Part shown: one piece after another, positions 24,837 to 60,701 of the stretch
Layout: every line of letters starts with the position of its first letter
Numbering within the stretch: position 1 is the stretch's first letter
NCBI GenBank assembly: GCA_963782055.1
Contig: CAWAIF010000003.1
Span: forward strand, 5,152,001 to 5,216,000
Reading direction: 5' to 3'
DNA: 64,000 nt
DNA from: an uncultured delta proteobacterium
GTDB lineage: Bacteria > Myxococcota_A > Polyangia > Polyangiales > Polyangiaceae
Notes under the pieces: generated by a model
What the model was told of the DNA's origin: nothing
Database searches by the model: none
The model's input: the letters and a program-made list of their open reading frames with translations, nothing else
Position numbers and translations under genes: made by a program

Positions 24837-24889
24837 GCATAGGAAATGCTGGCGCGATCGGGCGCGACACTTCACGAAATCCCTCTTAT
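24837..24889 (+). repeat. dispersed bipartite repeat, arm A (copy 1)
   Basis: GCATAGGAAATGCTGGCGCGATCGGGCGCGACACTTCACGAAATCCCTCTTAT. Confidence 0.85.
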
Positions 24890-25027
24890 CCCTCTTCCGG
24901 CGGTCAGGGTCGCGGCGAGGGTGTTCGCCAGCTCGTCGGGCCTGCCCGACGACACCGATGCGATACGCGGATGCCCGTGGGACGCACCGCCGAGATCGCA
25001 CAGGTGACCGCACTGCGCAGGAATCGA

Positions 25028-25741
25028 TCAGCGCCGTCGGGTCAACGCCGACACGCGCTCGCGCCAGAGGGGCTCGCCGTGCTTGCTCGTGACCGCGAGA
25101 TGGCCTCGGTCGAGGACGATGTCCTTGAAGCGGTATCCGAACACGATCTCGTTGGGCTCGGCCTTCAGGATCTGCCGGTCCAGCACGGGCCCGCCGGCGT
25201 CGCTCACGATCAAGCGGAGCGTGAAGACCTCCTGCGTCATGCGGCAGTCGAGCTCCGCGCGCAGGCCCAGCGCGCGGAACGTTCGCTTCTTGTGAACCCA
25301 CTCGTTCTTCATCCCGCCGGCGACGAACGCGTCCAGCCCCTCGACAATCTCGTGCTCGGGAACGCTGACGGAACGCGCGCACTTCGCGACGCCCTCGCGC
25401 AGGCGCTCGACGTAGTAAGTCCCGAGGGTTTCGAGCCCTTCGCCCGACCGGCGCTCGTAGGCGGCACGGTCGAACGGGATGTCCACCGTCGCCGCGCCCT
25501 CTGTGTTCACGAACACCCCTTTCCGCGGCGCCGAGCGCGCCGAGAGGACGATCCGATTGAAGCGCTCGGTCCGGTAGCGGAGCCTCGCGAGCACCTCGCG
25601 CTCCAGGTAGTTGCACACGGACCGCGAGCGCAGCAGGAACGCATACGTGTACGGTACGGGAAGGTCGGGCTCGTCCCCGAGGTACAAGTAGATCTGTCTC
25701 AGGATCACGTTGGCGAATCCTCGTCCGGGGCTCTCGACCAA
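25028..25741 (-). CDS. hypothetical protein (immunity-like)
   Basis: 237-aa ORF with plausible globular composition, flanked by two arm-A repeats. Confidence 0.6.
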   Translation of the reverse strand: MVESPGRGFANVILRQIYLYLGDEPDLPVPYTYAFLLRSRSVCNYLEREVLARLRYRTERFNRIVLSARSAPRKGVFVNTEGAATVDIPFDRAAYERRSGEGLETLGTYYVERLREGVAKCARSVSVPEHEIVEGLDAFVAGGMKNEWVHKKRTFRALGLRAELDCRMTQEVFTLRLIVSDAGGPVLDRQILKAEPNEIVFGYRFKDIVLDRGHLAVTSKHGEPLWRERVSALTRRR

Positions 25742-25785
25742 TCCCCTCGTCGTCCGTCGCTCTCCGCGGGGCCACGTCGAGCCGC

Positions 25786-25825
25786 GGAAATGCTAGCGCG
25801 ATCGGGCGCGTCGTCGAAGTCCCTC
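25786..25825 (+). repeat. dispersed bipartite repeat, arm A (copy 2, degenerate)
   Basis: GGAAATGCTAGCGCGATCGGGCGCGTCGTCGAAGTCCCTC. Confidence 0.75.
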
Positions 25826-25877
25826 CTGGACGAGGCCGCCGCGCGGCAGCGCGATCTCCGACCGCGAGCCTTCGTGA

Positions 25878-26633
25878 ATGGGCATCATGCGCTTTGCATC
25901 CAAGACCGCCATGCACCGCCCCGGCGTCGTCACGGTCTTCGCGTTCTTGGCGCTCGTCACTGCGGCTTGCTCGGCGAGCGACCCCATCACGGGTCCGGCG
26001 GACGCAGCCCCCGACACCAACGCGACCGACGACTCCGGAGTGGTTGGGGACACGGCCGCGCCCACACCGGACGCGGCCATCGCCGACGCCGCGGTCGACG
26101 CAGCGATCGAGGATGGCGGGGCTGCCGCGGCGACGCCCCCCGCAGGCTACAAGCGTTGCGGGCACGGGACGGCAACGCAGGCGGACGCGGCGGCGGCGTG
26201 TGACTTTCAAGGCGATCCCTTCTTCGAGCAGAACCTGCCGCAACGTTCATGCGACGGCGCGACCATCGCGTCCGCATCGTGGGAGGTCTGGTGCGGGAGC
26301 GGTCCGATCTACGTGTGGGTCCGGCTCGACGGGCTTCGAGCGACCGGCAAGTACAAGGGCTGCTTCGACGCCGAGGAGATCGGTCTGAGCTCCGGCTGGA
26401 TCGAGACGAACACGGCGGCGAGCGGCGCCACGCCCACCCCGTCGAACGGGACGTTCTCGACCACGACCACGCTCGACGCCTCGCTACAGTCGCTGGGAAA
26501 CACGACGAACGAGGCGACCGGAACCGGCAACGTCTTCGTCACGGGGAACTTTCCCGCGCCGTGCAACTCGCCAGCTCCGATGAGGGTGATGAGCGGCGTC
26601 TCGATTTCCTGGGATGCGGTGAACGGCAACTGA
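25878..26633 (+). CDS. hypothetical lipoprotein
   Basis: FLALVTAAC lipobox and DA-rich linker. Likely true start at 25911. Confidence 0.65.
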   Translation: MGIMRFASKTAMHRPGVVTVFAFLALVTAACSASDPITGPADAAPDTNATDDSGVVGDTAAPTPDAAIADAAVDAAIEDGGAAAATPPAGYKRCGHGTATQADAAAACDFQGDPFFEQNLPQRSCDGATIASASWEVWCGSGPIYVWVRLDGLRATGKYKGCFDAEEIGLSSGWIETNTAASGATPTPSNGTFSTTTTLDASLQSLGNTTNEATGTGNVFVTGNFPAPCNSPAPMRVMSGVSISWDAVNGN

Positions 26634-26686
26634 CGGGCCGGGCCAGACCGCCCAACGCGCTTTGAATGACTTGCGCGCCGGGCAGG

Positions 26687-27003
26687 TCATCGCTGCATCG
26701 CTGAGCCCTGCGGCGCCTTCTTCGCGTACGCGCGGCGCGGTTCCGCCATGGCCTCGCGGTGCTGCGTCGACCAGTCGAGGAGACCGCGGAGCGGCTTGAC
26801 GAGCGTGCGGCCCATGGGCGTCAGCTCGTAGTCGACGCGCGGCGGGACGGTCGGGAAGATCGTGCGCTTCACGAGGCCGTTCTGTTCCAGGCGCTCAGGC
26901 TCAAGGTGAGCATGCGCTGCGAGATGCCGTCGACCGCGCGCTGGAGCTCGTTGTAGCGGAGCGAGGGGCGCCGCCTCAGCGCGCCGAGGCAGGATCGTCC
27001 ACT
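26687..27003 (-). pseudogene. degenerate partial duplicate of the HxlR regulator at 31345-31734
   Basis: Near-identical DNA to about 31354-31643, with small deletions that break the frame; 5' end missing. Confidence 0.85.
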
Positions 27004-27037
27004 CGACTCGACGCGGCCCTGGTGATACCGTTACCAA

Positions 27038-27544: not shown

Positions 27545-27652
27545 ACGTCGACGCCGAGGCTCCGGCGAAGACGCCGCGAGCGCGCTGACCCTGGCGCCGT
27601 CGGTCGGCGCGCCTGCGCTGCCGAGCGGCGCGCTCGTGATCCAAGCGACTGA

Positions 27653-27694
27653 CGCAGGCTTTTTCCCGACGGTCGCGCTAACACTTCCTATGCG
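27653..27694 (-). repeat. dispersed bipartite repeat, arm A (inverted, degenerate copy 3)
   Basis: Reverse complement reads CGCATAGGAAGTGTTAGCGCGACCGTCGGGAAAAAGCCTGCG. Confidence 0.65.
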
Positions 27695-27719
27695 CTCGAG
27701 ATGTGAGTAGGTAGACGGA

Positions 27720-31344: not shown

Positions 31345-31734
31345 TCAGAGCGGCTTCTTCGCGTACGCGCGGCGCGCTTCCGCCATGGCCTCGCGGTGCT
31401 GCGTCGACCAGTCGAGGAGACCGCGGAGGGGCTTGACGAGCGTGCGGCCCATGGGCGTCAGCTCGTAGTCGACGCGCGGCGGGACGGTCGGGAAGACCGT
31501 GCGCTTCACGAGGCCGTTCTGTTCCAGGCGCTTCAGGCTCAGGGTGAGCATGCGCTGCGAGATGCCGTCGACCGCACGCTGGAGCTCGTTGTAGCGGACC
31601 GAGGGGCGCCGCCTCAGCGCGCCGAGGACCAGGATCGTCCACTTGTCTCGGAGGAGCGCGATCGCTTCGCTCGCCGCGACGCACTGGGTTTGCGCAGGCT
31701 CGTCCATGCGAACGAATTTGTTCGTGGCGCTCAC
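31345..31734 (-). CDS. HxlR family winged-helix regulator
   Basis: 'DKWTILVL..RYNELQRAVDGISQRMLTLSLKRLEQNGLVKRTVFPTVPPRVDYELT'. Confidence 0.93.
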   Translation of the reverse strand: MSATNKFVRMDEPAQTQCVAASEAIALLRDKWTILVLGALRRRPSVRYNELQRAVDGISQRMLTLSLKRLEQNGLVKRTVFPTVPPRVDYELTPMGRTLVKPLRGLLDWSTQHREAMAEARRAYAKKPL

Positions 31735-34502: not shown

Positions 34503-34550
34503 TATGCGAAATGGGGCCGTCCGGCCTCACTGGAAGGACGGACCAGGGTG
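34503..34550 (+). repeat. dispersed bipartite repeat, arm B alone
   Basis: TATGCGAAATGGGGCCGTCCGGCCTCACTGGAAGGACGGACCAGGGTG. Confidence 0.9.
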
Positions 34551-39735: not shown

Positions 39736-42700
39736 ATGTCGAGTGTCCTCGCCGTGGTCTCCAAGGCCATTTTCGACAAGCAAGCCAAGGGCCTCGCGCC
39801 GGGCGCCGTGTGGGACACCGCCCGCTACGCGAGCCACAACCCGAACCTCGACGCGCTCGCGAGCGGCGGCGGCGACCTGTTCCTCGTCACGGTCCGCCCG
39901 AACGACGTCCTCTGGCTCGTCGCGATTCTCCGCGCGCCCAAGGCGGACGCCGACGGCTGGAAGAGCGCCCCGAACACGACCCCCGTCCGTGACGTCACCG
40001 AGCTCCTCCCGAACCTGAAGTTCTCGACCGGCAAGGGCGTGAAGGCCGACAAGGGCAAGCTCGGCATGTCCCTCCAGACCCCGCGCCAGCTCACCCCCGC
40101 CGACGTCACCCTCCTCGACGGCGCTCCCACGCCCCTGCCCACGCGCACGCCCACGCCCACGCGCACGCCCACGCGCACGCCCACGCCCACGCCCACGCCC
40201 CCGCCGACGACCACGCCCCGCGTCGTCCTCACAGAGACCGTGCGCAAGTGGCTCACGCCCAGCCCACCCAAGCCCCCCGCGCGCTACGTCCGCGCGGCGC
40301 GCGACAAGGCCGCCCAGGACGCGGCGCTCGCGAACGCCAAGCCCGAGGTCACCGCGCTCGCGGCGAAGATCCGCGCGTGGCTCGACGACGGAGCGCGCTT
40401 CACCGCGAAATACGACGACGAGACCCAGGTGGCGGCCGCGAATTTCCTCCAGCGCTTCTTCGGCGTGCCGGATTTCGCCGCGCATTGGGCTCACGAGCTC
40501 GGCGTCGCGCACGCCGCGCGGCTCCTTCTCCACGATCGCCTCGTCGATCTCGGGACCGGGGCCAAGCGAGAGCTCGTGCGCAGCAAGCAACGCCACGACG
40601 CCTACGACCACCAATTCGCGCTCTCGCGTCTGGTCCCCCACGCGCGCGGCCTCTCGCCCGACGAGCTCGCGGAGGTGAAGCGCGAGCTCGAGCCGATCGT
40701 CGCGCCGCTCCATCCGACGGTGCACCTGGCGCTCGCGCGCGTCGTCCGGGACCAGGAGACCATCGACGCCATCGCGCGTCGCGCGGCCAGCGACGCGGCG
40801 TTCTTCCAGAAGGCCGAGGAGATCGCTTCGATCTCGCGCGTCATCGTCGCCGAGTCGCACGACGCGGACGCGGTCGAGGCGATCCTCGTGAAGAAGCCTT
40901 CGTGCGTCCAATTCGGCGGCGCGCGGGGCCTCGCGCGCGCGCTCCAGAACATCCCCGTCGCGACGCTCGAGCGCGCGCTCCTCGCGATCTTGCCCGCCAT
41001 CGAGAAGAAGGCGACGCCCGGAGACTACAAGGAGATCTTGCGCGTGCTCGCGTGCATCGACGACGCGCCCGTCGCCGACTACCTCGCGCAGCGCGCGCAC
41101 GCGAAGCCGGTGCAGCCCGTCGCGCTCGAGTACTTCACGCTGCACCCCCACCACCTCGGCGCGCTCGAGGCGGTGTCGAAGCAGAAGGGCAAAGCGGGCG
41201 CGGCCGCCGCGACGATCCTCGACTCGGCGCGTCGCCACGCGCGTACGCCCGCGCCCACGCCCGCGCCCACGCCCACACCCACGGGCACCGCGGAACCGCG
41301 CGTGGCGATCACCGAGACCGTCCGCAAGTGGCTCACGCGCGACACGTTCAAGCGTCCCGAGCGCTTCGTCCGCGCGAACCAACCGAAGGACGTGCTGAAG
41401 CGGATCGACGACGCGCTCGGGCGCGCGGCCCCCGAGGTCGCGCCCATCGCCGCGAAGATCCGCGCCTGGCTCGCCGACGACGACGGGCGCTTCTCGGCCG
41501 CTCACGACGACGAGACCCAGGTCGCCGCGTCGAACTTGCTCCTGCGGTTCTGCCACGGCCTGCGCTTCCACACGCCGGACTTCGTCGGAAACTGGGTCGA
41601 GGCGTTCGGGGTCGAGCACGCCGCGCGCCTCCTCCTCCGCGACCCGATCGTCGATCTCGACTCCACGTCGCGCGTGGTCGACGAGCGGCTCGTGCGCGCA
41701 GCGGATGCCGGCGGCCGGGCCATCCGACTGGAGTTCGCGCTCCGTACGCTGCTCCCGTACGTGCGCGATTGCGCTCCGGAGGAGCTCGCCCGGCTGAAAC
41801 GCGAGATCGAGCCGCTCGTCGCGGACCTTCCCCCGGTGGTCCACCTCGCCGTCGCGCGCCTCGTGCGCGACCAGGAGACCATCGACGCGATCGCGCGACG
41901 CGCGGCCGAGGACGTGGCGCTCCAGCTGGACCTCGTGCGGTCCGGCGTCTTGAGTGTGCTCGTCGCCGAGTCGCGCGACGCCGATGCCGTCGAGAAGCTC
42001 ATCGTGATGGGGGGCAACGCCGCGCCGAGCCTCGCGTGCGCCCTCGAGCACCTCCCGGTCGCGACCATGAAGCGCGCCATGCTCGCGATCTCGCCGCAGA
42101 GCGAGAAGGCTACGCCGGGCCGTTACAAGGCGTTTCTCGAGGTGCTCGCGTGCATCGTCGACGCCGACGTGGCCGACTACCTGGCGCGCCACGCTCACGC
42201 GAGGCCGGCGCAACCCGTCGCGCTCGAGTACTTCACGCTCCACCCCCACCACCTCGGCGCGCTCGAGGCGGTGTCGAAGCAGAAGGGCAAAGCGGGCGCG
42301 GCCGCCGCGACCGTCCTCGAGTCCGTGCGCCGACGCGCGCCGGCCGGGGCTCCCGTGGCCGCCGCCGCGGCGACCGCGTCCACCGACGGCGTGCCCGTCG
42401 TGCTCCGCGCGCCTCCTTGGAAGAAGAAGGGCGACGGCGACGATCTCGTCCTCGATCTGCCCATCCCGATCGAACCGGTCACCCAGCTCCGCCCCGACGA
42501 GTACGTCAAGTGGGTGCAAGGCCCGCTCTGGACGCGATTCCGGGACGTCGCGAAGCTGAAGGCGCACCTCGAGTCGGGTCACTACCCCCAGATCCGCAAC
42601 GAGTACCTCGAGGGGCTCTTGACCGACCTCGGCCCGGAGGCGGCGCCGGTCGTGATCGAAGCGGCCGCGCGCGAGCCGGCGGCGAACATCGGCTTCCTCA

Positions 42701-44355
42701 CGCACGTCCTGTCGCCGCGCGGCGCGGTCGCGCTCGCGTCCCTGCTCGCTCGGACGAAGGAGGCTCCGGAGGTCCGGGCGTTCTTGATCGATCACGCCGA
42801 CCTCGCCGCGCGCGGGCTCGTGCCCGCCGCTGTCGCCAGGGACGCCAAGCTCCGGCGCGCGGGGCGCGCGGGGATCGCGGTGCTGGCCGACGCCGGCAAG
42901 CTCGACGCCGTCGCGGCCGTCGCGAAGACGCTCGGCGTCGACCCGAAGGCCCTCGAGCCCGATGACGCGCTCCCCGCGCCACGGAAGATGCCGCCGTTCG
43001 CCGACGCGCGCGCCCTGCCCGCGCCGGTCCTCGCCGAGAGCGGCGCGCCGCTGCCCGAGGCGGCCGTCGCCAACCTGCTCGCCATCCTCTCGGTGCTCCC
43101 GAAGGACCACGGCCACCCGAGCGTCGACGCGATCAAGGCGGCCTGCACGCAGGAGTCGCTCGACGCGTTCGCCTGGGCGCTCCTCTCGGACTACGTGCTC
43201 GCGGGCGCGCCGGCGCGCCACGACTGGGCGCTCTTCGCCGCCGGCCACCTCGGCTCGGACGACGTCGCGCGCAAGGTGGACGCCGCGGCGCGCAAGTGGG
43301 TGCAAGTCAGCGTCCCGCTCATGCAGAAGTCGCTCGACGTGCTCGCGCTCATCGGCACCGACGTCGCGCTGTCGCTCTGCTACGAGCGCGGGCTCGCGGC
43401 GAAGTTCGCCGACACGCAGGAGCGCGCGCGCCGGATCCTCGAGCAGGTCGCCGCGCAGCGCGGAATCGACTACGCCGAGCTCGAGGACCGCCTCGTGCCC
43501 GAGCTCGGCCTCGACCGCGGCCCGATCGTGCTCGACTACGGCGCGCGAACCTTCGAGGTGAAGCTGGACGAGCACCTCGCGCCCTACGTCGCGGTCGACG
43601 GCGTGCGCCGTGAGGCGCCTCCCAGGCCGGCGAAGTCGGACGACGCGGCGAAGGCCAAGGTCGCGGCCGCGCGCTACGCGACGCTCGCGGAGGACCTCTC
43701 GCACGTCGCGCGGACGCAGATCCTCCGCCTCGAGCGCGCGATGCGCGAGGGGCGCGTCTGGCCGCGCGACGCGTGGCTGCGCGAGGTGGCCGAGCACCCG
43801 CTCCTTCGCCACCTCGCGCCGCGCATCGTCTGGCGCGCGGGCGACGCCCTCGTGCGCATCGCGGAGGACGGCACCTTCTCCGACCCGAACGACGAGCTCG
43901 TCACCCTCGACGGCGCGGTCGAGGTCCGCGTCGCCCACCGGCTCGACGAGGATCCCACGCAGTGGGCGAAGATGTCGCAGGTCTTCGGCGACTACGAGAT
44001 CCTCCAGCCGTTCGACCAGCTCGGGCGCGAGACGTTTCGGCCGACAGGTGCAAAATACACGGATTCGGTCGGGCGCAAGGCGCCGTGGGCGGCGGTCGAC
44101 GAGCTGCTCACCGGGCGCGGCTGGATCCGCACGCCGCCGGACGACGGCACGGTCAAGACGCTCGCCTTCCCGCTCGACCGCGTCGGCGTGGCGGGGGCGC
44201 GCGCGACGCTCGGGATCACGCCGGGCCTCACGATCGGCCCGGTCAAGGCGCGCCCCGAGCAGACGGTGGGCGAGCTCGTGCTGCACGGCGTCACGTTCGA
44301 GGAGCTCCAGCCGCGCGTCGCGAGCGAGCTCACGCGCGACGCCGCCACGCTCTAG
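39736..44355 (+). CDS. DUF4132-domain protein with PT linker and internal tandem duplication
   Basis: C-terminal 'ELEDRLVPELGLD..LDYGARTF..HPLLRHLA..W..D..V.VAH..W..VFGDYEILQPFDQLGR' DUF4132 pattern, plus two repeats of about 340 aa. Confidence 0.85.
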   Translation: MSSVLAVVSKAIFDKQAKGLAPGAVWDTARYASHNPNLDALASGGGDLFLVTVRPNDVLWLVAILRAPKADADGWKSAPNTTPVRDVTELLPNLKFSTGKGVKADKGKLGMSLQTPRQLTPADVTLLDGAPTPLPTRTPTPTRTPTRTPTPTPTPPPTTTPRVVLTETVRKWLTPSPPKPPARYVRAARDKAAQDAALANAKPEVTALAAKIRAWLDDGARFTAKYDDETQVAAANFLQRFFGVPDFAAHWAHELGVAHAARLLLHDRLVDLGTGAKRELVRSKQRHDAYDHQFALSRLVPHARGLSPDELAEVKRELEPIVAPLHPTVHLALARVVRDQETIDAIARRAASDAAFFQKAEEIASISRVIVAESHDADAVEAILVKKPSCVQFGGARGLARALQNIPVATLERALLAILPAIEKKATPGDYKEILRVLACIDDAPVADYLAQRAHAKPVQPVALEYFTLHPHHLGALEAVSKQKGKAGAAAATILDSARRHARTPAPTPAPTPTPTGTAEPRVAITETVRKWLTRDTFKRPERFVRANQPKDVLKRIDDALGRAAPEVAPIAAKIRAWLADDDGRFSAAHDDETQVAASNLLLRFCHGLRFHTPDFVGNWVEAFGVEHAARLLLRDPIVDLDSTSRVVDERLVRAADAGGRAIRLEFALRTLLPYVRDCAPEELARLKREIEPLVADLPPVVHLAVARLVRDQETIDAIARRAAEDVALQLDLVRSGVLSVLVAESRDADAVEKLIVMGGNAAPSLACALEHLPVATMKRAMLAISPQSEKATPGRYKAFLEVLACIVDADVADYLARHAHARPAQPVALEYFTLHPHHLGALEAVSKQKGKAGAAAATVLESVRRRAPAGAPVAAAAATASTDGVPVVLRAPPWKKKGDGDDLVLDLPIPIEPVTQLRPDEYVKWVQGPLWTRFRDVAKLKAHLESGHYPQIRNEYLEGLLTDLGPEAAPVVIEAAAREPAANIGFLTHVLSPRGAVALASLLARTKEAPEVRAFLIDHADLAARGLVPAAVARDAKLRRAGRAGIAVLADAGKLDAVAAVAKTLGVDPKALEPDDALPAPRKMPPFADARALPAPVLAESGAPLPEAAVANLLAILSVLPKDHGHPSVDAIKAACTQESLDAFAWALLSDYVLAGAPARHDWALFAAGHLGSDDVARKVDAAARKWVQVSVPLMQKSLDVLALIGTDVALSLCYERGLAAKFADTQERARRILEQVAAQRGIDYAELEDRLVPELGLDRGPIVLDYGARTFEVKLDEHLAPYVAVDGVRREAPPRPAKSDDAAKAKVAAARYATLAEDLSHVARTQILRLERAMREGRVWPRDAWLREVAEHPLLRHLAPRIVWRAGDALVRIAEDGTFSDPNDELVTLDGAVEVRVAHRLDEDPTQWAKMSQVFGDYEILQPFDQLGRETFRPTGAKYTDSVGRKAPWAAVDELLTGRGWIRTPPDDGTVKTLAFPLDRVGVAGARATLGITPGLTIGPVKARPEQTVGELVLHGVTFEELQPRVASELTRDAATL

Positions 44356-44370
44356 GTTCACCCCGGAGGC

Positions 44371-44429
44371 CGCATAGGAAATGCTGGCGCGGTCGGGCGC
44401 GAAAGCTTGCGAAATCCGTGATATGCGAA
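44371..44429 (+). repeat. dispersed bipartite repeat, arm A plus degenerate core (copy 4)
   Basis: CGCATAGGAAATGCTGGCGCGGTCGGGCGCGAAAGCTTGCGAAATCCGTGATATGCGAA. Confidence 0.9.
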
Positions 44430-44499
44430 GCTACCGTACGGCGCTGGCTGCGCACGGATCCACGCGCATCGGGCGACGCAGATCGTGTATGAAGCCTCC

Positions 44500-46692: not shown

Positions 46693-47292
46693 CTAGTAGA
46701 AGCGGAAACCAGATTCGTACGCTATTAACCACTTTGGAGGCATAGGGCCAGATCCGGCGAACATTGTCCGAGCGCACGGACCATTCCAGGATTCGACCAC
46801 CTGGATTGCGGCCTTCTGCCAGTCGGTCTCTTCTTTGTCCGCGAGTCTCTCCCCCTCATCGCCTTTACTACAGCTGCCTGCCATTTGTGCGACATAGAGT
46901 GCCGATCCCAACGCCCGAGCGGTCGCGACAACGGCCTCATTCTCATTCGAGGTGATGGCCTCGACGATTCGGAGTGAAACCGTTGCCGAGGAGGCGAGGA
47001 TTGTGATTCCTTCTTCGTTGAGGTACGCCACGACATCCTTGAGGCTGATAAGCAATCCAGTTCTTGCTGCGGTGTCGATCTCCTCGCTTCCAGATGCATG
47101 CTTCCATCCAAATTCAACCGCCTCCTTGACGGCCGGATAGTGGTTGCCGACCCAATGTTTGTCATAGACTTGGTGCGCGCGTTCTCCACACGCACTGGCC
47201 AAAGCAACGCGCGCGCGGAGTGCGACTGGTGCCAATCTCTTTTTCCTGAGGGAGTGCGTGGGAGTGCGTTCAGAACGATTGTGTGGCCGCAT
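46693..47292 (-). CDS. lower-GC hypothetical protein (immunity-like); putative ATG lies inside repeat arm A
   Basis: 199 aa; visibly AT-richer than its surroundings; 'ARVALASACGERA..VKEAVEFGW'. Confidence 0.6.
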   Translation of the reverse strand: MRPHNRSERTPTHSLRKKRLAPVALRARVALASACGERAHQVYDKHWVGNHYPAVKEAVEFGWKHASGSEEIDTAARTGLLISLKDVVAYLNEEGITILASSATVSLRIVEAITSNENEAVVATARALGSALYVAQMAGSCSKGDEGERLADKEETDWQKAAIQVVESWNGPCARTMFAGSGPMPPKWLIAYESGFRFY

Positions 47293-47374
47293 AGGAAATG
47301 CTAGCGCGGTCGGGCGCGAAAGTTTGCGAAATCCATGGGGCCGTCCGGTCTCACTGGAAGGACGGACCAGGGTG
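47288..47374 (+). repeat. dispersed bipartite repeat, arms A+B joined with core deleted (copy 5)
   Basis: CGCATAGG...TTTGCGAAATCCAT|GGGGCCGTCCGGTCTCACTGGAAGGACGGACCAGGGTG. Confidence 0.92.
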
Positions 47375-48162: not shown

Positions 48163-49779
48163 TCAGAGCCCGGTGACCTTGCCGTCGCGCGCGATGCGGA
48201 AGGCCTTGACGCCCGCGTTGCTGTTGATGGTCTCCACAAAGAGCACGGCCGCGTCTCGACGCGCCACCAGCTCGAAGTCGTCTTGGATGACGCTCGACAT
48301 GAACGGCTCGCCGCCGCTCGTGGTGTCGTCGTAGATCGGGCGGTCTTCCGTCTTGTCGATGTCGCCCGGCTTCGCGACCACGTACCTCACGCCGCGACGG
48401 CTCGACCGCCACACGACGACGACGGCGTCGCCGAGGCCGACCGCTCGCACGTCCGAAGGCGCGCGCGGTCGCGCCGGCTCGGCGAGACGCGAGAATGCCT
48501 TGCGCAGATCGACCGTGTCGACCGGAGCGCACCCGCGGGCCGTGCATCGCGCGACGTGAAGCGTGAGCCCGTCCGCCGATGCGTCGACCAAGCTCGTGAA
48601 GGTCACCGCATCCACGCCGCACGACGCGGCGCTGTGCCTTTCGGCGCTGCCGATCGATCGCGGAATCGTGAACGTGTGAACGGGCGAGTGCTCGTCGTCA
48701 TGAAAGAACACCACGTAGCCCGGTCCGTAGATCGTCAGCGCGTCACGCACGAAGCAGCCGGCGAAATACGACGGCTTCGGGACGACGCCGATGTCTTCGA
48801 TCCCCGACGCCGTCGTGCCGACGAAGCGCCTGGCGAACAGATGCCGGGTGCCGTCCTTGGCGTCTTCGAGCCAAACCGCGCGGTCGCCGAGGAGGGTCAC
48901 GTCGGCGTTGGCCTCGGTGGTCCACTTGGCGTCGACGAGCGGCCCGTTCCCGCGGGACGCCGCATACGAGAACGTGGAGTCGCTGCCGGGGTTGCTCGAT
49001 TGTCGCGAGAGCACGAGCACGCTGCCGTCGCTCTCGCCAAACGCGGTGCACGCGCGACCCGTGCAGAACGGACGGGCGTCGTCCGCGCGGTGGACGGAGT
49101 CGCCGGACGAGTGCCAATCTTGTTGCCCCGTCGGCGCGACGAGAAGCGGCGCTCCGTCGGCGCTGCCGGCGAGGACCGACTTCGGGACGAGCGCACCCGG
49201 ACGGCACGCGATCTTCCCGATGGGCGCGCGCGACTCGCACAACGTGGTGCCGCCGAGGATGAAGTGGAGGTCCGCGCCCGGCACGGGATCGAAGCTCGCG
49301 CCGATCAAGCTCGCACGAAGAGCGAGCGGTGTCGTGCGCTCGTCCGCGACGTCCGCATAGGGAGGCGCGGCCGGTACGTCGTCAGGAGGCGGGCGCGTGC
49401 TCGGGCGCACGCCGAAATACGCGTCGAACGCGTAGGGCGAGCTCTCCACCGTGTCGACGTCGATGACGGGCGACGGTGCCTGCAGGTCGATGCCTTCGAG
49501 CGCCTCGTCGACCTCCTCGTAGTCGCGAACGTACTTCTCGCATCGCGCAGGCCAGCCCTTGGGCGGATGGCCGAGCATGATGCGATGAAGCCGAGCCGAT
49601 GCTTCCTCCTTCGGTAGAAGCGGCGCGCCGAACAGGCATTTGTGCACCGACGCCAGCGATGCAGCGGCGCGGCGAACCCGGTAAACCCGCGTGGCGTAGG
49701 TGACGGCGAAATAGGCCGCGACGCACCCCGCGGCGAGCCCGCCGAGCTTGACCCATCTTCGGCCGTTCACGGTGGGCAC
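48163..49779 (-). CDS. hypothetical membrane-anchored protein
   Basis: 538 aa with N-terminal TM. GTG start overlaps the left end of an arm-A repeat. Confidence 0.65.
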   Translation of the reverse strand: MPTVNGRRWVKLGGLAAGCVAAYFAVTYATRVYRVRRAAASLASVHKCLFGAPLLPKEEASARLHRIMLGHPPKGWPARCEKYVRDYEEVDEALEGIDLQAPSPVIDVDTVESSPYAFDAYFGVRPSTRPPPDDVPAAPPYADVADERTTPLALRASLIGASFDPVPGADLHFILGGTTLCESRAPIGKIACRPGALVPKSVLAGSADGAPLLVAPTGQQDWHSSGDSVHRADDARPFCTGRACTAFGESDGSVLVLSRQSSNPGSDSTFSYAASRGNGPLVDAKWTTEANADVTLLGDRAVWLEDAKDGTRHLFARRFVGTTASGIEDIGVVPKPSYFAGCFVRDALTIYGPGYVVFFHDDEHSPVHTFTIPRSIGSAERHSAASCGVDAVTFTSLVDASADGLTLHVARCTARGCAPVDTVDLRKAFSRLAEPARPRAPSDVRAVGLGDAVVVVWRSSRRGVRYVVAKPGDIDKTEDRPIYDDTTSGGEPFMSSVIQDDFELVARRDAAVLFVETINSNAGVKAFRIARDGKVTGL

Positions 49780-49828
49780 GTAGGAAATCCTAGCGCGGTC
49801 GGGCGCGAAAGTTTACGAAATCCATCTT
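49777..49828 (+). repeat. dispersed bipartite repeat, arm A (copy 6, left of insertion)
   Basis: CACGTAGGAAATCCTAGCGCGGTCGGGCGCGAAAGTTTACGAAATCCATCTT. Confidence 0.9.
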
Positions 49829-50006
49829 GGACGAAGCCGCTGCGCGGCAGCGTGGCTCCGCATCAAGCTCGCTCGCGACCCGGGAGCCCCGCGAGCCGTG
49901 TGCGCGCTGACGAGCCCGCCTCGTAGCCCTCGCGTGCCGTGATGCGGGCGATCCTGCGGCGCGCGCCGCCCGCTCGTGGGCGCGCGCGGAGCCGAAGGAG
50001 GCCGCG

Positions 50007-50852
50007 ATGGGTGCGAAGCGAAGACTGCGGGACACGATGAGCGAGGACCTCGCGCTGCGAGGGATGAGCGCCAACACGATCGCCACGTACGTGGGGTGCG
50101 TGCGGCGGTTCGCGCAGTACCACGGGCGGTCGCCGTGCGCGCTGGGGGCGGCGGAGATCCGGACGTTCCTTTTGCACCTGGTGGCGGAGCGCAGGCTGGC
50201 GGCGCTGACGGTCAACGTGCACGCGGCCGCGCTGAGGTTTCTCTACGAGGTGACGCTGGAGCGGCCGGAGGCGACGCTGGGGATGGCGCGCATGCGGGTG
50301 CCGATGCACGTGCCGGTGGTGCTGACGAGCGCGGAGGTGGCGCGGCTGCTCGCGTCGCTCACGAGCCACAAGCACCGGGCCCTGGTGATGCTCGCCTACG
50401 GGGCGGGGCTGCGCGTGAGCGAGGTGTGCAAGCTCCGGGTGGACGACATCGATCCGAAGCGGATGCTCCTGCACGTGCGGCACACCAAGCGCGGGCGTGA
50501 GCGCTACGTGATGCTCAGCGCGAGGCTGCTGGCGACGCTGCGCGCGTACTGGAAGGCGTCACGACCCGCAGGACCGCAACTGTTTCCGGGGCGCGTGCCC
50601 GGGACGCTCCTCACGCGCGCGGCCGTCCACCGGGCGATCCTCAAGGCGGCGCGGCGCGCGGGCATCACCCGGCGCGTGTCGCCGCACACGCTGCGCCACA
50701 GCTTCGCCACGCACCTGCTCGACGCAGGGACCGACCTTCGCACGTTGCAGGTCTTGCTCGGGCACGCGTCGCTCAGGAGCACGATGGCCTACCTGCACGT
50801 GAGCACCGCCCGCGTGCAGTCGATTCAGAGCCCCCTCGACGCGCTGCCCTGA
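50007..50852 (+). CDS. site-specific tyrosine recombinase/integrase
   Basis: GLRVSE, HTLRHSFATHLL and LGHASLRSTMAY catalytic motifs; SAM-like N-domain; no IntI-specific insertion seen. Confidence 0.93.
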   Translation: MGAKRRLRDTMSEDLALRGMSANTIATYVGCVRRFAQYHGRSPCALGAAEIRTFLLHLVAERRLAALTVNVHAAALRFLYEVTLERPEATLGMARMRVPMHVPVVLTSAEVARLLASLTSHKHRALVMLAYGAGLRVSEVCKLRVDDIDPKRMLLHVRHTKRGRERYVMLSARLLATLRAYWKASRPAGPQLFPGRVPGTLLTRAAVHRAILKAARRAGITRRVSPHTLRHSFATHLLDAGTDLRTLQVLLGHASLRSTMAYLHVSTARVQSIQSPLDALP

Positions 50853-50858
50853 GCCCCG

Positions 50859-51815
50859 ATGCACCCGTCGTGTGCGCCCGCGCGCACGCGCGCGGCGCCC
50901 ATCGAGCTCGCGGACGTGGTGCGCGCCCACGGCGAGGCCTTCGCCGGCGGCCGCGTGCTGCGTCCCGAGGAGCGGTCGGCGCTGCGGGCGATCGAGCGAT
51001 GCCGGACCGCCGCGCTGGGCGGACATCTGGACGTGTGCACCGCGTGCGGGCTCGAGCGACCGTCGTACAACTCGTGCCGCAACCGGCACTGTCCCAAGTG
51101 CCAGTCGCTCGCGCAGGCGCGGTGGGTCGCCACGCGGCTCGAGCGCATTCTGCCCGTGCACTACTTCCACGTCGTCTTCACGCTCCCCGCCGAGCTGCGC
51201 GCCGTCGCGCGGCGCTCGCGCGCGCGGGTCTTCGACATGCTCTTCGCGAGCGCGGCCGACACGCTGGCCACCCTCGCGCGGGATCCGAAGTGGCTCGGCG
51301 CCGAGCTCGGCGTCACGATGGTCCTGCACACCTGGACGCGCGCGCTGCTCTTCCACCCCCACGTGCACGCCATCGTCACCGGCGGCGGACTCACCGGCGA
51401 CGCCGCGCGCTGGGTGCGCGCGCGCCGTCGCTTCCTCTTCCCCGTGCGCGTGATGGGCGTCTCGATGGGCGAGCGCGGCGTCACCTTCCGCACCAGAGAC
51501 GGCAAGTCGGTCACCGTCCCGGCCGAGGAGCTGCTCGCGCGCTTCGTCCAGCACGTGCTGCCGCGCGGCTTCGTCAAGATCCGCCACTACGGCCTGCACT
51601 CCGCCAGCCACGCCACCACGCGCCTCGAGACCGCACGCCGCAGACTGGGTCCGCACGCGCCCGCTGCGCGACCGGAGCGCCGTGCCGTCGCCGCCGACCT
51701 GCTGCTGCGAATCGCGGGCATCGACCTGCGCCGCTGCCCCGCTTGCCACACGCCTGCCCTCGTGCGCACCGCGCTGCCCGAGCCCCGAGCTCGCGCCCCG
51801 CCGAGGGCCGCATGA
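50859..51815 (+). pseudogene. IS91-family transposase with in-frame internal deletion
   Basis: Zn-finger SCRNRHCPKC, HVVFTLP, HPHVH (HUH) and IRHYG are present, but no YxxRY catalytic segment between FLFPVR and VTFR. Confidence 0.8.
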
Positions 51816-52142
51816 TCTCCCCGCGTCGTGCTCCACTGCGCTCGCTCCACGAGTGCGGCCCAGGCCCCTGTCCATCCGCGCCACCAAAAACCGCCCTCCG
51901 AGCACGCACGGCTGCCCGCTGCGCGCTCCGGGACGCCCGCGTCGAGCGCCGTCCCGCCGCCCGCTCGGCACCTCGCGCACCCGCACACGTGACCCACACG
52001 CCGCCAACTTCCCCATAGGGCTCCGAGGCCACCGCCTCGCCGCTGCCGCGCACCGGCTTCGTCCAACCGTCGATTTCGCGACCGCGCACCCGCGCCACGC
52101 GACCGCCGCCGCGACCCGGCGCGCTCACGCAATCGACTCTTA

Positions 52143-52190
52143 CTTATGCGAAATGGCCGTCCGGTCTCACTGGAAGGACGGACCAGGGTG
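52143..52190 (+). repeat. dispersed bipartite repeat, arm B (copy 6, right of insertion)
   Basis: CTTATGCGAAATGGCCGTCCGGTCTCACTGGAAGGACGGACCAGGGTG. Confidence 0.9.
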
Positions 52191-56999: not shown

Positions 57000-57102
57000 C
57001 CCCTCCCCCTTTCCCCTCCCCCTTTCCCCTCCCCCTTTCCCCTCCCCCTTTCCCCTCCCCCTTTCCCATTCCCCTTCCCCGTTCCCCTTTCCCATCTCCC
57101 CT
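57000..57102. repeat. 13-bp tandem repeat (CCCCTCCCCCTTT)x5 plus degenerate tail
   Basis: Directly visible; near-pure pyrimidine top strand. Confidence 0.95.
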
Positions 57103-57401
57103 ACCCATGGAGCGCCGGGACGCGCTGGTGATCGTAGAGCATCACCCGGATGTGCTCGCGTCGGCGGACTGCCTGGGTTGTGGAGCCGGGCCCGGAGGGC
57201 GGCGCAGGAGGCGGGCGTGTGGTGCACGAGGGGAGCCGAGGGCGATCGGGAAGGCGAAGACGGCGACCGGCAGGTGCTTCCTGGGGGCGGCGCGAGCCTG
57301 ACCCTGCACTTCCGCCCTCGTGCTCCACGGCTCGAGCGCAGCCCCATGGTGGCGGACCACCGGCATTGCTCAACGTCGGGTTTCGGACCGTGCGCCAGCG
57401 T

Positions 57402-57776: not shown

Positions 57777-58192
57777 CACCCGGCGTCCCCTCCGCACAGA
57801 TCCGGATCGGCGAGGCACTCCGGGACGTAGTCGCCGTTGCGCGCGCAGCAACGCATCGGCGGGATGCAGTAGACGTCGCCGCAGACGCACCGGCCGTGAA
57901 GCTCGACGGCCGCGCAGCACCAGCCGGTCATGGTGTCGCACCACGCGTAGTCGTTCTTCCCGCAGTTCGGGCCGAGAGGGGCGCAGAGCTTGCCGCCCGG
58001 GGGTGGATACTCGCCCGGACGCGGCGGCGCCTCCGGCCGGTAGCTGGCATCCGGAAAGTTCGTGTACCACGGCGCGTCCGCGCCGGCGTCTTCCGCCGAG
58101 GCGCTTGCGTCGAGTGTTGCACCGGTCGGCGCCACTTCCCCGCCGCAGCCCGCTGCCAGAACCAGCAGCAGCACGCTGCCCAGCCTCACCAT
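57776..58192 (-). CDS. small Cys-rich lipoprotein
   Basis: LLLVLAAGC lipobox; TGATG coupling to the next gene. Confidence 0.65.
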   Translation of the reverse strand: MVRLGSVLLLVLAAGCGGEVAPTGATLDASASAEDAGADAPWYTNFPDASYRPEAPPRPGEYPPPGGKLCAPLGPNCGKNDYAWCDTMTGWCCAAVELHGRCVCGDVYCIPPMRCCARNGDYVPECLADPDLCGGDAG

Positions 58193-59907
58193 ACGACGCT
58201 CTCCAGATGCTGGTCGAACACCACGGGCACGTTGGCGGTCGTGCAGCCGAGGCGCGAATCCGTGTGCGTCGTGACGATCCACGGGTACGGGACGTTGTTC
58301 AGGACGTTCTGCGAACCGCCGGGGAAGCCGAGCGTCCCGTGAAAGACGCGCCCGGGGATGACCACCGAGCCGAAGTAGTCTCCCCAGTAACCATTCGCCG
58401 TCGTGCACGGCAAGTACGGGTCGGTCTCGAGGATGTCGAAAGGCCCCACGGGGCCGGAGGCGAGGCCGTCGTTGGAGAAGATCCCGTAGACGGCCAGGCG
58501 ACGATCGTCTGCCTGCGGTACTGTCCCGCTGAAGCCGTCACTCTGCTGCCCGTACCACGTCAGCACCACGCCCTCGCTGCTGCGGGACGCGGAGACGCTG
58601 GGCTGAAGCTGGTCGCCCGAGGGCACAAGGTTGTTCTGCTCGCTCACGAAGGGCGAGTAGAAGTCCCAGTGCCGCCACCCGAATGTCGTCCCGTCGGAGC
58701 CGACGCCGCAGATGCCCCCGTTGCCGAAGTGCGGGCAGTCATCGAGCTGCGCCGAACTCACCATCGTGTCGTCGTCGGGCCGATTGCGAAGCCCGGTGTA
58801 CGCGATGTAGAGGTGGTCCCCGTTCGTTCCCACGGCGAAGCTCATCGGGATCCCGTCGCGCCACGTTCCGTTCCCACCGTTCGGATTTGCCCGGTGCAAA
58901 GGGTGGATCTGAACGTTGTCCCGTTCGTAGACGAGGACCGAGCTCCACGGCGTGAAGCCGCCGGGATCGGCGAGGTTGATGCTGCGCGTGAGGCGAAGGA
59001 TCTTCAGATCGACGAGGTCGTCGCCGGAATTCATGATCGGCTTCAACACCATGTACGCGAGGAAGCCGGTGGTCGGCGAGGTGAGCCGGATGACGGGGTT
59101 CTGGAGCGAGCACCCCGCGCAGAGGCTCTCGTGGACGACCTCCTCCGAGAACCAGCCCGGCGGGAACGGCGCGATGAACGTGGACGCGACGAGCCGGATG
59201 CGGCTGAAGTTCTGATCCGCGACATTCGTCGCTGCGGTGTCTTGCACGAACGCCGCCACGGCCGTCTCCCCGATGGCGGAGATGGAGGGCTTGTCCATGG
59301 TGTCGGTGAGCGGCACCTTGTAGGCGACCGTGAAGGGCGTCCAGTCGATACCGTCCGCCGAGGTGGCCACGGCGAGCGCCAGCTCGGAGTATCTGAAGTC
59401 CTGGAAGCCAACGTGCTCTACCTTCTTCGTCCAGCCGATCATCGAGTAGAACGCGGTGGTCCCGTCGAAGGCGAGCCACGGATCGCTGTCGAGCCCCACG
59501 ATGCAGTTGCCGGACGACGCGCCGCAGCCCGTGTCCGGCGGCAGCGGACCGCGGCGAAGCCAGTGCAGACCCCCATCCGTCGAGTACGAGAGGCCCGCGG
59601 CGGTGGCGTTGTCCCGCAGGACCGTCGTGCTCCCGGACAAGAAGAAGGCGGAGAGGTCGTTGTACGCGGCGAGCGTCACGCCCTCGGGGAAGCGGACGGT
59701 GCCTGGTAAGAAGAGCATGCTGGGCTCGGAGGCCGGGTAGCCCTGCACCGTGCCCTGCGGGTCCGACGCGTTACTCTCCACCGCGCTGTTGGTGCAGGCG
59801 GAGGCCGTCGCCATGGCGACGATCGTCAGCGCTCCCAGACCTAGCGGAAGCTTCCCCCCCCCCCCCCAACTTCCCCACGTGACGAGCTGCACGACCCATC
59901 GGCTCAC
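58186..59907 (-). CDS. secreted BNR/Asp-box (sialidase-like) repeat lipoprotein with G14 tract near start
   Basis: 'YSTDGGLHW', 'TSADGIDW', 'SDPWLAFD', 'DKPSI' and 'YWGDYFG'. Start uncertain. Confidence 0.7.
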   Translation of the reverse strand: MSRWVVQLVTWGSWGGGGKLPLGLGALTIVAMATASACTNSAVESNASDPQGTVQGYPASEPSMLFLPGTVRFPEGVTLAAYNDLSAFFLSGSTTVLRDNATAAGLSYSTDGGLHWLRRGPLPPDTGCGASSGNCIVGLDSDPWLAFDGTTAFYSMIGWTKKVEHVGFQDFRYSELALAVATSADGIDWTPFTVAYKVPLTDTMDKPSISAIGETAVAAFVQDTAATNVADQNFSRIRLVASTFIAPFPPGWFSEEVVHESLCAGCSLQNPVIRLTSPTTGFLAYMVLKPIMNSGDDLVDLKILRLTRSINLADPGGFTPWSSVLVYERDNVQIHPLHRANPNGGNGTWRDGIPMSFAVGTNGDHLYIAYTGLRNRPDDDTMVSSAQLDDCPHFGNGGICGVGSDGTTFGWRHWDFYSPFVSEQNNLVPSGDQLQPSVSASRSSEGVVLTWYGQQSDGFSGTVPQADDRRLAVYGIFSNDGLASGPVGPFDILETDPYLPCTTANGYWGDYFGSVVIPGRVFHGTLGFPGGSQNVLNNVPYPWIVTTHTDSRLGCTTANVPVVFDQHLESVVW

Positions 59908-59937
59908 CCCCCCGCTGCCCGTGATGCTACCGCGTCC

Positions 59938-60554
59938 ATGCCCAAGGTCAACGCGTACGGCGAAGTCGCGAGCACTCACAAGTGCGCACATCGCGGTCCA
60001 CGTGTCGTTCCACGCCCGTCCCGCTTCGTACCCTTTGCGGCGATCGCGTCGGTGGCCGTCGACCCGTACGACGTCGTGGTCCAGCTCCACGACGGGAGCA
60101 CGATCGCGTGGCACCGGACGCGAGGGCAGCTCAAGGGCCTTCGCGAGCACTTCCGCGGCTTCGGCGCGCGGATCGAGCGAGGGCTCGCCGCGCACCGCGT
60201 CCAGGCCGCGGCGCAGGGCGTCGTCCAGCTTGCACGCGGCGCGCGCTGGGTGGAGGTGTGGGTGCGCGATCACCGCGTCGCCGGCGATCCCGGCCGCAGC
60301 ACCTAACCGGATCGCCGCGGTGCCGCCCGACGAGATCTGGAAGACCCTGGAGAGCGCGACCGGCGGCACCCACCGCGCGCGCCGGCGCGGCCGTCGCCCT
60401 GCAGCGCGGCCTCGACGGTCCAGGCCGGAAGCGCGTCCGCCACATTGCCGCGACCTGCGCGTCCGACGACCTGCGCCGCGTACTCATGGCGGCGGCGAGC
60501 GACGATCCCGAGCTCGAACGCCGCCTCCAGGCGCTCCACGACAGCGCCCGCTGA
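59938..60554 (+). pseudogene. frameshifted paralogue of the C-terminal domain of 28795-29955
   Basis: Frames switch near 60304 and 60361; '..RIAAVPPDEIWKTLES..ARAGAAVAL..RVRHIAATCASDDLRRVL'. Confidence 0.55.
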
Positions 60555-60650
60555 GTGGCGTCCCCTCAGTGCGCGCCGACCAGCCGCACCAGCGTGCCCA
60601 TCACGTGCCGGAACCGCCCGCGCAGCACCTCGTCCAGCTCCGGCATGTAG

Positions 60651-60701
60651 CGCATAGGAACTGCTAGCGCGGTCGGGCGCGAAAGTTTACGAAATCCATC
60701 T
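60651..60701 (+). repeat. dispersed bipartite repeat, arm A (copy 7, abutting the intron 3' end)
   Basis: CGCATAGGAACTGCTAGCGCGGTCGGGCGCGAAAGTTTACGAAATCCATCT. Confidence 0.92.

Follow-up and report, generated by a model that had tools for sequence, protein, structure and literature searches.

To judge by its sequence, the dispersed repeat that runs through this window (by which we mean the whole stretch of 64,000 nucleotides that was analysed) belongs to a rolling-circle element of ISCR type, of which it forms the oriIS end module, 100 bp long. The window holds the far end, old and decayed, of a row that spans 90 kb and in which 18 matches to the repeat share one orientation behind a single head element. 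The genome holds three such rows behind three heads, and we think it rather probable that they were built by an HUH transposase joining both ends of arbitrary fragments to modules, with XerCD predicted to bind a mimic of the chromosomal dif site within the module. Such rows likely represent an undescribed integron-like mode of gene collection; in the literature searched, which lay mostly outside subscription journals, we found no description of ISCR end-module rows or of a dif mimic in an ISCR end. The capture of many resistance genes is ascribed to ISCR elements, by a mechanism deduced mostly from single clinical structures. The step at which foreign DNA is picked up becomes directly testable in natural rows, which offer dated junctions by the tens, donors free of the unit and a module defined to 100 bp. 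Were the capture reading true, integrons and CRISPR would be joined by a third way of building arrays, one that an HUH transposase runs and that stores whole functions here (kdpABC, a type I restriction-modification system with PD-Lambda-5-like genes, Rhs toxins and a Panacea antitoxin all lie within the arrays), and a dif mimic that tracks its host would be a new use of XerCD.

The first-pass annotation had described nine segments of a bipartite repeat, arms A and B, breaking at a central CTT, and all nine are present where it placed them. A nhmmer profile built from 20 full-length genomic copies and run on the genome recovers eight (E 1e-21 to 0.094, the segment at 25786 being the weakest); the inverted segment at 27653 has no nhmmer match and a blastn E of 0.18, and its arm-A score of 45, set against best-match scores of 37-43 in 18 control windows of 64 kb, suggests a copy that is probably real, though marginal. 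The genome has 71 unit matches in total and carries 19 intact, near-identical 99-nt copies and one diverged full-length copy, so the search that the annotation had proposed does find intact A-CTT-B units. Its reconstruction of the intact unit came close to the real one, save that the third motif reads GAAGT rather than GAAAT and that a constant G ahead of the 99 nt, missing from the reconstruction, brings the length to 100 nt. The unit folds no better than its shuffles (z about -1.3), in keeping with the view that this is no canonical attC; the inverted pair CGCATA/TATGCG is, by inspection, absent from the modules of other genomes. We rejected this pair and three supposed direct motifs as separate signals; they correspond to the oriIS tip and two Xer-like arms. 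Apart from a group II intron, Rfam has no match in the window, whose relevant features are as follows.

24837..24890, plus strand: decayed end module, ori-side half (arm A) to the start of the XerD-like arm; 41/51 arm matches, the most distal match of its array
25786..25855, plus strand: decayed arm A, then the decayed left end of a recombinase+IS91 element, from alignment to that element's left end
27653..27695, minus strand: weak inverted remnant, the oriIS tip of arm A (E=0.18; score 45 against a control maximum of 43)
34503..34550, plus strand: arm B alone, with XerD-like arm, small hairpin and inner module end (nhmmer profile)
44370..44441, plus strand: diverged module, arm A and a complete but degenerate 11-6-11 site, the remainder of arm B lost
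47287..47374, plus strand: module that lacks its XerD-like arm through a 12-bp deletion
49776..49826, plus strand: arm A (oriIS tip, XerC-like arm, 6-bp centre) of a module split by the inner element
49827..52143, plus strand: inner element, 2317 bp, at the bond between centre and XerD-like arm of that module
50007..50852, plus strand: tyrosine recombinase of the inner element; best NCBIfam match the integron integrase TIGR02249, 198 bits, under the 265 cut-off
50859..51815, plus strand: IS91-family Y2 transposase of the inner element, this copy lacking about 200 bp of full-length copies
52144..52190, plus strand: arm B completing the module begun at 49776
60650..60701, plus strand: arm A of a module split by intron and inner element
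60702..64000, minus strand: group II intron, one base into the left end of the inner element and extending 47 bp past the window

Three of the segments had been called arm A alone and are not: that at 44371 retains the whole 11-6-11 site, that at 25786 adjoins the decayed left end of the 2.3-kb inner element, and that at 60651 is followed by the group II intron and then the inner element, with its arm B partner just beyond the window at C3:5218366-5218415. The left flank of this last module cuts a multicopy gene family mid-sequence, and the RT/maturase of the intron is itself split by an IS4-family element at about 61260-62705. The 'core deletion' reported at 47288 does exist, but it takes 12 bp, the entire XerD-like arm, between 2-bp AT microhomologies and involves no break at CTT; a gene fragment (BAAT N-terminal domain, minus strand) enters the inner end of the same module. 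The breaks at the central CTT are made mostly by a second element inserting at one bond, and the pair at 49777/52143 was rightly read as arms split by an insertion, with a tyrosine-recombinase element between them and attL/attR-like junctions.

What identifies the unit is its place at the head of each row, where it forms the terminal 100 bp (the oriIS end) of three ISCR-type elements, 36 bp past the transposase stop. The unit is thus the end of an insertion sequence and no orphan att-site family; the annotation had itself named a match to the end of an already catalogued IS as counting against its proposal, and in spirit this outcome does. The transposase is about 40% identical to those of ISCR1 and ISCR2 over 66-72% of its length and has the same HUH and RY-x-x-RP motifs; the head protein carries PF04986 and PF14319, and its best NCBIfam match is ISCR clade Ia (275 bits, under the 925 cut-off). 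As in the published oriIS of ISCR1 and ISCR27, the oriIS lies downstream of the gene and its terminus reads TTCCTAT plus 4 nt. Homology between two heads starts at an imperfect palindrome, a candidate terIS, some 110 bp before the gene. The head element has no terminal inverted repeats, there is no target duplication, and junctions overlap by at most 1 bp. A purine adjoins 29/30 inner ends and 35/37 ori ends; at the latter, IS91 proper (IS91, IS801, IS1294) has a tetranucleotide target (PMC13181058), whereas here only the purine is conserved.

Of the 71 matches, 50 fall in three rows, each within 90 kb on the ori side of its head, with none within 700 kb on the opposite side, and 20 lie outside the rows. 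Orientation follows that of the head in 18/18, 22/27 and 5/5 matches, and the head transposase of the window's own row sits at C3:5265302-5267017, some 49 kb past the window end; another head transposase lies at C3:4409734-4411449. In both long rows, arm identity drops with distance from the head (rho -0.85 and -0.62); the short row at 2.74 Mb has no decay trend. Over the 50 kb nearest each head, identity shows no steady gradient, and two alleles of arm A alternate, both along rows and from head to head, so that strict addition at the head stays a proposal.

Both outer ends of the unit cut genes and IS interiors at arbitrary positions, and the spacers, which range from 0 to 12 kb, contain truncated genes (kdpD, IS interiors) and are rich in IS, introns and fragments. 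Among the 27 complete non-head units, 16 could be tested for the contiguous flanks of a simple insertion and none has them, and on this count we dropped a freely hopping mini-element as the identity of the unit. One 4-kb block, 99.9-100% identical, occurs in three spacers with six different endpoints. Unit-free donors match entire spacers at 95-100%: this holds for spacers of 340 and 302 bp, which match unit-free DNA elsewhere, and genome G179 has a 179-bp spacer that matches its unit-free donor end to end. A single donor position serves as left flank for a unit of one row and as right flank for a unit of a second row, as would be expected if a simple insertion had later recombined. Since spacer DNA is bounded at the outer ends, at arbitrary positions, recombination at the unit centre cannot produce these boundaries.

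The likeness of one arm to the XerD arm of dif, noticed at first pass, holds for the entire module centre, an 11-6-11 mimic of chromosomal dif whose arms match the host site at 19/22 positions. The host dif sits at the KOPS and GC-skew switch, the genome has xerD and a xerC-like gene, and we predict that host XerCD binds the mimic. Further afield, 73 loci were examined, of which 50 had a C-terminal transposase match and 42 remained once 8 were set aside (self, mis-anchored or with too little downstream DNA); a dif-like score of at least 14/22 was found at 14 of these 42 ends versus 0 of 240 control windows. The mimic is no general feature: with this genome's dif as the sole reference, 9 of the 11 loci that bear arrays score below 14/22. 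It does appear to track its host: module arms fit their own host's dif, presumed for the other genomes from a pattern match without skew confirmation, better than the dif of other hosts (permutation p about 1e-4 over 10 genomes, some related and so not independent). The 6-bp centre differs from that of the host dif in 10/10 genomes and is uniform within a lineage. At least four dif-pattern sites occur in 10 of 300 other genomes, and all 10 have a related transposase, compared with 120 of the 300 overall; no link to a transposase was established for the modules of G049 and G106.

Metagenome contigs scanned for the exact pattern of arm A, and genome contigs for that of arm B, gave no match either way, and a DNA search of 40 related genomes gave a single partial arm A, in one genome; the unit sequence being so lineage-specific, relatives were reached via the transposase. 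Precisely bounded end modules lie downstream of the transposase at 11 of 25 related loci, the other 14 having none within the downstream DNA covered. Downstream there are 23 modules in 393 kb, 21 of them in the same orientation, and upstream there are 0 in 86 kb; G179 has at least 73 modules. In G136, G290 and G309 the rows have no recognisable mimic, and the single dif-pattern site of each genome lies elsewhere. As rows stand behind these 11 related transposases, often without a recognisable mimic, the transposase is likely the builder and the role of XerCD probably accessory.

The second element, to which most of the central breaks trace, inserts at one bond. All 14 of its left junctions lie there (11 right after the unit core and 3 behind a group II intron one base in), and 12 of 13 right junctions run on into the XerD-like arm. 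It has the layout of the subgroup that combines IS91 with a tyrosine recombinase, an integron-like recombinase gene lying upstream of a Y2 transposase, and the recombinase matches inside the arrays are its own and score under the IntI cut-off. The element repeats its left end in inverted form about 85 nt inside the right end, from which we predict a long hairpin once the two ends are joined; the bottom strand folds with z -9.0 (z -6.2 in the homologue L011).

The mechanism that we infer draws on features read directly from the sequence, namely module identity, position and orientation, arbitrary outer junctions, unit-free donors and dif likeness. The transposase would nick oriIS and a second, ter-like site 100 nt inside, much as for miniature IS801 products, and the module, rather than simply inserting, would have its ori end and its inner end joined to two different points on a donor strand. 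The resulting unit of module plus fragment would then be added to a resident module, mostly close to the head element, so that older modules are pushed outwards and decay with time. At the mimic, XerCD would aid the insertion or exchange of units, or the resolution of multimers, and could be dispensed with in some lineages. The central breaks are mostly the work of the second element, a parasite whose ends, joined and single-stranded, are predicted to fold into an attC/CTX-like site for its own recombinase to insert at the XerD-like arm; the arm of that element is itself the target of a group II intron. We are slightly less than evenly inclined to a bolder version, in which this is a widespread, transposase-run analogue of integrons: an ISCR head would capture arbitrary fragments singly and store them outside oriIS in a polar row, tagged by its own 100-180-bp end, several lineages having given the tag a host-tracking dif mimic through which XerCD integrates or reshuffles units, while recombinase-IS91 elements and group II introns parasitise it.

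The strongest challenge to capture is that miniature one-ended products merely hop locally, inserting simply near their parent, and that the DNA between modules is afterwards deleted, inverted and swapped as modules recombine, homologously or through Xer, leaving rows that are scars in junk-rich islands. IS801 yields fixed-length right-end miniatures at high frequency, proposed to serve mainly as portable homology (PMC3189936), and the insertion site split across two rows, the alternating arm-A alleles and the abundance of IS, introns and fragments in spacers would all follow. We nevertheless think this unlikely, at perhaps one chance in four, because none of the testable units has contiguous flanks even though young units are 96-100% identical to the head, because unit-free donors match whole spacers, and because rows keep to one side of the head, here and in relatives.

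Far less probable is the strong form of the first-pass model, in which Xer-type cassettes like the Acinetobacter dif modules, or attL/attR half-sites, cross over at the centre through a tyrosine recombinase. A host-matched dif mimic whose centre is uniform within a lineage is what it would lead one to expect, and chromosomal dif-module islands are known in Acinetobacter (PMC12907356). A central crossover would, however, keep cassette ends identical, and the shared 4-kb block has six different ends; nor does it account for truncated genes in spacers, for the rows lacking a recognisable mimic or for the oriIS terminus. As an origin of the spacers it is largely refuted, and with it the idea of arms as free half-sites shuffled to organise the region; overall, the first-pass interpretation is partly supported. 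We give hardly any credence to the converse proposal that the recombinase+IS91 element really ends in arms A and B, the 100-bp unit being the remnant left once its recombinase excises the genes. Every left junction of that element does lie at the unit centre, but its genes point away from the oriIS-like arm, the reverse of the IS91 layout, at three heads the unit is contiguous with a different transposase gene, relatives of the element occupy dif-like sites with other flanks, and the two junction centres differ, making a clean double-strand excision unexpected.

For the module rows that we favour, the closest precedent is the miniature ends of IS801, an IS91-family element (Bardaji et al. 2011, PMC3189936), which are likewise pieces of fixed length that retain the ori end, have their other end at an internal ter-like site and make no target duplication, with a transposase able to act in trans. 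Those miniatures, however, measure 229, 360 and 679 nt, were trapped as insertions with a tetranucleotide end and are rare in genomes (PMC3189936), whereas the present modules have an intact ori end and a fixed internal end at about 100 nt, come in tens in one-way rows behind their parent, never have contiguous flanks where testable and hold a dif mimic. ISCR1, ISCR2/ISVsa3, ISCR27 and ISCR28 have a related single-Tyr-motif HUH transposase, an oriIS downstream of the gene and rolling-circle gene capture, and for ISCR28 a report cited in PMC12772301 has a captured gene sandwiched by a remnant that carries an extra oriIS. Capture by ISCR is on the ter side, with re-entry via homologous recombination, in the passages of PMC13023784 consulted, whereas here cargo lies outside oriIS between short modules. 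Four plasmid ISCR ends (ISCR1, ISCR2 and two others) score 10-12/22, with no dif-like site.

In integrons, too, the gene of a platform enzyme heads a polar row of foreign DNA and sites in direct repeat, and their sites attract specialised IS and group II introns. The present heads are HUH transposases rather than IntI, the sites have no attC-like fold, and the spacers are fragments with cut genes, unlike single-gene cassettes. The annotation was also right to set CRISPR aside, as the repeats are 100 bp, the spacers variable and of kilobase scale, and no Cas family is among the array proteins scanned. The pdif modules of Acinetobacter and the IMEX (CTX, VGJ and TLC phages) share XerC/XerD-type 11-6-11 sites outside the terminus, and arrays, and dif-module sites are targeted by other IS (the IS1202 subgroup, 10.1101/2022.12.17.520857). 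In contrast to these, the present site lies inside a transposon end, its copies are direct repeats, nothing is integrated at the chromosomal dif, and cargo, instead of having fixed ends at recombination sites, is joined 30-40 bp away at outer module ends that vary for the same block. The inner element, at 2.3-2.5 kb, has the same gene pair as the IS91-family elements with an integron-like tyrosine recombinase in 10.1101/542381, the available part of which describes neither a target site nor a foldable joined end. Its target here is one bond of a dif mimic, and it offers a way to test the purpose of the recombinase in such elements.

We think it near certain that the dispersed bipartite repeat is the oriIS module of an ISCR-type element, and that this module carries a mimic of the chromosomal dif site. 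All nine segments marked by the first-pass annotation are present where it placed them, and its observation of the repeat is confirmed; of its interpretation, the likeness to dif holds up, and the picture of half-sites shuffled by a tyrosine recombinase gives way to a transposase end. A Y2 transposase search, which also recovered the element that splits modules at their centre, located three parent elements, here called heads, on contig C3 of the source genome (G000):

C3:4409734-4411449, head transposase, 572 aa
C3:5265302-5267017, head transposase, 572 aa
C3:2741281-2742741, damaged copy of the head transposase

At all three heads the unit starts 36 bp past the stop and forms the end of the common sequence. 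The head transposase is about 40% identical to those of ISCR1 and ISCR2, with the same motifs, and the unit terminus, read outward from the gene, is TTCCTAT plus four bases, as reported for the oriIS termini of ISCR27 (PMC8894482) and ISCR1 (PMC13023784). Searching the 7.58-Mb genome with a profile made from 20 of its full-length copies gives 71 matches; among these, 19 intact, near-identical 99-nt copies each have G directly 5'. The window holds the more decayed copies: the profile recovers eight of its nine segments, and the inverted one at 27653 is a marginal match. The copy at 47288, described as lacking its core, has instead lost the XerD-like arm through a 12-bp deletion; 44371, listed as arm A alone, is a whole site that has diverged; and 60651, listed likewise, belongs to a unit split by a group II intron and the 2.3-kb element, with arm B just outside the window.

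One profile match, at C3:3558737, sits at the switch in KOPS polarity and in cumulative GC skew, and for this reason we take it as the chromosomal dif; none of the genome-wide matches adjoins it. This presumed dif reads AGTTTACATAA TGTATC TTATGCGAATT and the dif-like site of the unit AGTTTACGGAA (or ...GAAA) TCCATC TTATGCGAAGT, so that 19 of 22 arm positions match and the centre differs. Against the NCBIfam cut-offs, xerD passes and a xerC-like gene narrowly misses; judged by conservation, XerCD is predicted to bind the mimic, and Xer sites are usable outside FtsK control, as IMEX biology shows (PMC9226527).

On their ori side, the three heads have 27, 18 and 5 of the 71 matches within 90 kb, oriented as the head in 22/27, 18/18 and 5/5 cases, and on the ter side there are none within 700 kb; the remainder are dif itself and 20 elsewhere, including three adjoining a decayed head on contig C2. 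Arm identity declines away from the head in both long rows (rho -0.62 and -0.85), stepwise and with the first 50 kb almost uniform, and shows no drop with distance in the short one; the window corresponds to distances of 52-88 kb from the head at 5.27 Mb. Along the rows, arm A alternates between two alleles, which implies either that rows swap material or that modules come from more than one head.

The spacers between modules look like captured fragments. Where flanks have a paralogue, the outer ends of units are seen to cut them at arbitrary points, including the interiors of insertion sequences and kdpD; we found no target duplication at units, and a purine stands beside 35/37 ori ends and 29/30 distinct inner ends. 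There are 27 complete non-head units, and in none of the 16 testable ones are the flanks contiguous in the paralogue. One 99.9-100% identical block recurs in three spacers with six distinct endpoints. Most other spacers have no second copy in the genome, and the G+C content of most of these is below that of the genome (59-74%, mostly 60-70%, versus 71.6%). The cargo, from a scan of 94 and 53 of 150 predicted ORFs, includes kdpABC, Rhs proteins, kinases, many insertion sequences and a type I restriction-modification operon with PD-Lambda-5-like genes, the last in a 10.4-kb spacer (L022:13944-19648; C3:5229941-5238057) with a Panacea-domain antitoxin nearby.

Transposase-driven capture is the best-supported reading, and on the sequences available we hold it to be moderately probable. 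On the simplest account, two strand transfers would join a donor strand to modules at two points, one through the ori end and the other through the inner end, and the product would then be added to a resident module, preferentially near the head; XerCD acting at the mimic might serve integration, exchange or resolution. The chief competing explanation is that modules hop locally and then recombine with one another. Contrary to pure capture, one and the same donor position serves as left flank to a unit in one row and as right flank to a unit in another. A 340-bp spacer is identical to C2 DNA without a unit, and a 302-bp spacer 98% identical to DNA without one at 6.83 Mb. IS91-family transposases are described as starting at oriIS and stopping at a ter site, with a bottom-strand circle and no duplication (PMC13181058), and IS801 as often halting at internal sites to give fixed-length right-end miniatures (PMC3189936). 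The module is compatible with this chemistry, but the product differs, since each event brings new junctions on both sides and donors lack the module. ISCR/IS91 ends and miniature ori-end products are already known, and ISCR28 remnants sandwiching a gene (PMC12772301), dif-module islands (PMC12907356) and IS91 elements with integron-like recombinases (10.1101/542381) have been described; in the openly accessible papers searched, we found no account of fixed ISCR end modules set in polar rows and bounding captured DNA, nor of an ISCR end with a dif mimic that tracks the host.

In genome and metagenome DNA searches the unit sequence is private to the lineage of G000, and relatives of the head transposase are present in 120 of the 300 genomes sampled from the order, as well as among named records of Myxococcota, Acidobacteriota and others, so that a myxobacterial host is probable. 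Of 63 loci taken for a row test, 25 allowed the stop to be located and had 2.5 kb or more of sequence after it, and 11 of these, in regions chosen downstream by design and with several loci from one genome, carry further end-module copies of 90-170 bp with a sharp inner boundary. This amounts to 23 copies in 393 kb downstream, 21 oriented as the head, and none in 86 kb upstream. Whole-genome searches gave rows in G122, G317, G073, G054, G081, G088 and G179. The last, the densest example found (at least 73 end modules, on contigs C49, C141, C149, C164, C271 and others) and the best test material, yields 73 matches to the pattern; 40 of 48 pairs of neighbours are co-oriented, the median spacer is 1.5 kb, and a 179-bp spacer aligns end to end with a donor without a unit.

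Scored against the G000 dif only, 14 of 42 related ends contain a site with a dif likeness of 14/22 or more, as does none of 240 controls; the ends of four plasmid ISCR elements reach 10-12, and 9 of 11 array-bearing loci fall below 14 on the G000 scale. Module arms track their own host's dif, presumed from a pattern match (permutation p ~1e-4 in 10 genomes, the related ones among them not being independent; 22/22 in G179), and the module centre is unlike that of the presumed host dif in 10/10. The transposase is present in 10/10 other genomes with at least four dif-pattern sites, the modules of G049 and G106 having no linked transposase, and in G136, G290 and G309 modules fail the pattern that picks out one presumed host site. 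The common denominator is the transposase end, not the dif mimic.

In the heads of six related loci (L100, L103, L104, L106, L053 and L243), a TTG(G/C)A-like motif, resembling that preceding oriIS, stands some 10 nt ahead of the inner boundary of the module; it is missing from their module copies, may mark the second cut, and is not evident in the heads of G000. A second ISCR-type family (G000:C3:2732868-2734271) is accompanied by dispersed end pieces of its own, at most about 250 nt long, with remnants on C3 at 954665, 2260636, 2268043, 2285575, 4431360, 6195996 and 6775558, and units of the first family cut some of these pieces.

The 2317-bp insert at 49827-52143 codes for two enzymes, a tyrosine recombinase of integron-like type and a transposase of the IS91 family. 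Genome-wide, its left junctions lie at the bond between centre and XerD-like arm in 14/14 cases (three behind an intron), and 12/13 right junctions run on into the XerD-like arm. Its right end contains an inverted copy of the left, and the joined ends form a strong bottom-strand fold (z -9.0; -6.2 in the homologue L011). Homologues from other genomes, in L009, L011, L012 and L013, are preceded by a XerC-like arm plus 6 bp, that of L011 in a different ISCR end. The group II intron targets the element's arm, at the left end and the inverted copy alike. In G317 and G054 other elements likewise split the module centre, an interruption resembling IS1202-type elements at Xer sites (10.1101/2022.12.17.520857). 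A CCCATA motif conserved about 120 bp inside the right end (window 52005-52020; also in L011 and L013) is possibly the element's own rolling-circle origin, which would then be internal, not terminal.

Several features of G000 deserve mention in their own right. Two modules stand in tandem without a spacer, with a 100-bp period (C3:4433280-4433478). A second lineage of modules, which differs in its 6-bp centre and in its arm B (C3:4412503-4412585, 6191333-6191405 and 6199913-6199971), serves the inner element and the intron as well, and its centre is that of the G242 modules. An IS66-family element lies within the XerD-like arm of a module, with an apparent 8-bp duplication (C3:4450610-4452123), and a lone module with the inner element sits between two diverged tandem paralogous segments, 75-93% alike (C3:5976388-5980806). 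In the window, which covers a decayed part of its row, a piece of an HxlR-like regulator gene is duplicated at 97-98% identity (26713-26989 and 31350-31627), and a 1539-aa DUF4132 protein (39736-44355), which contains a repeat of roughly 1.1 kb, ends 15 bp short of the module at 44370.
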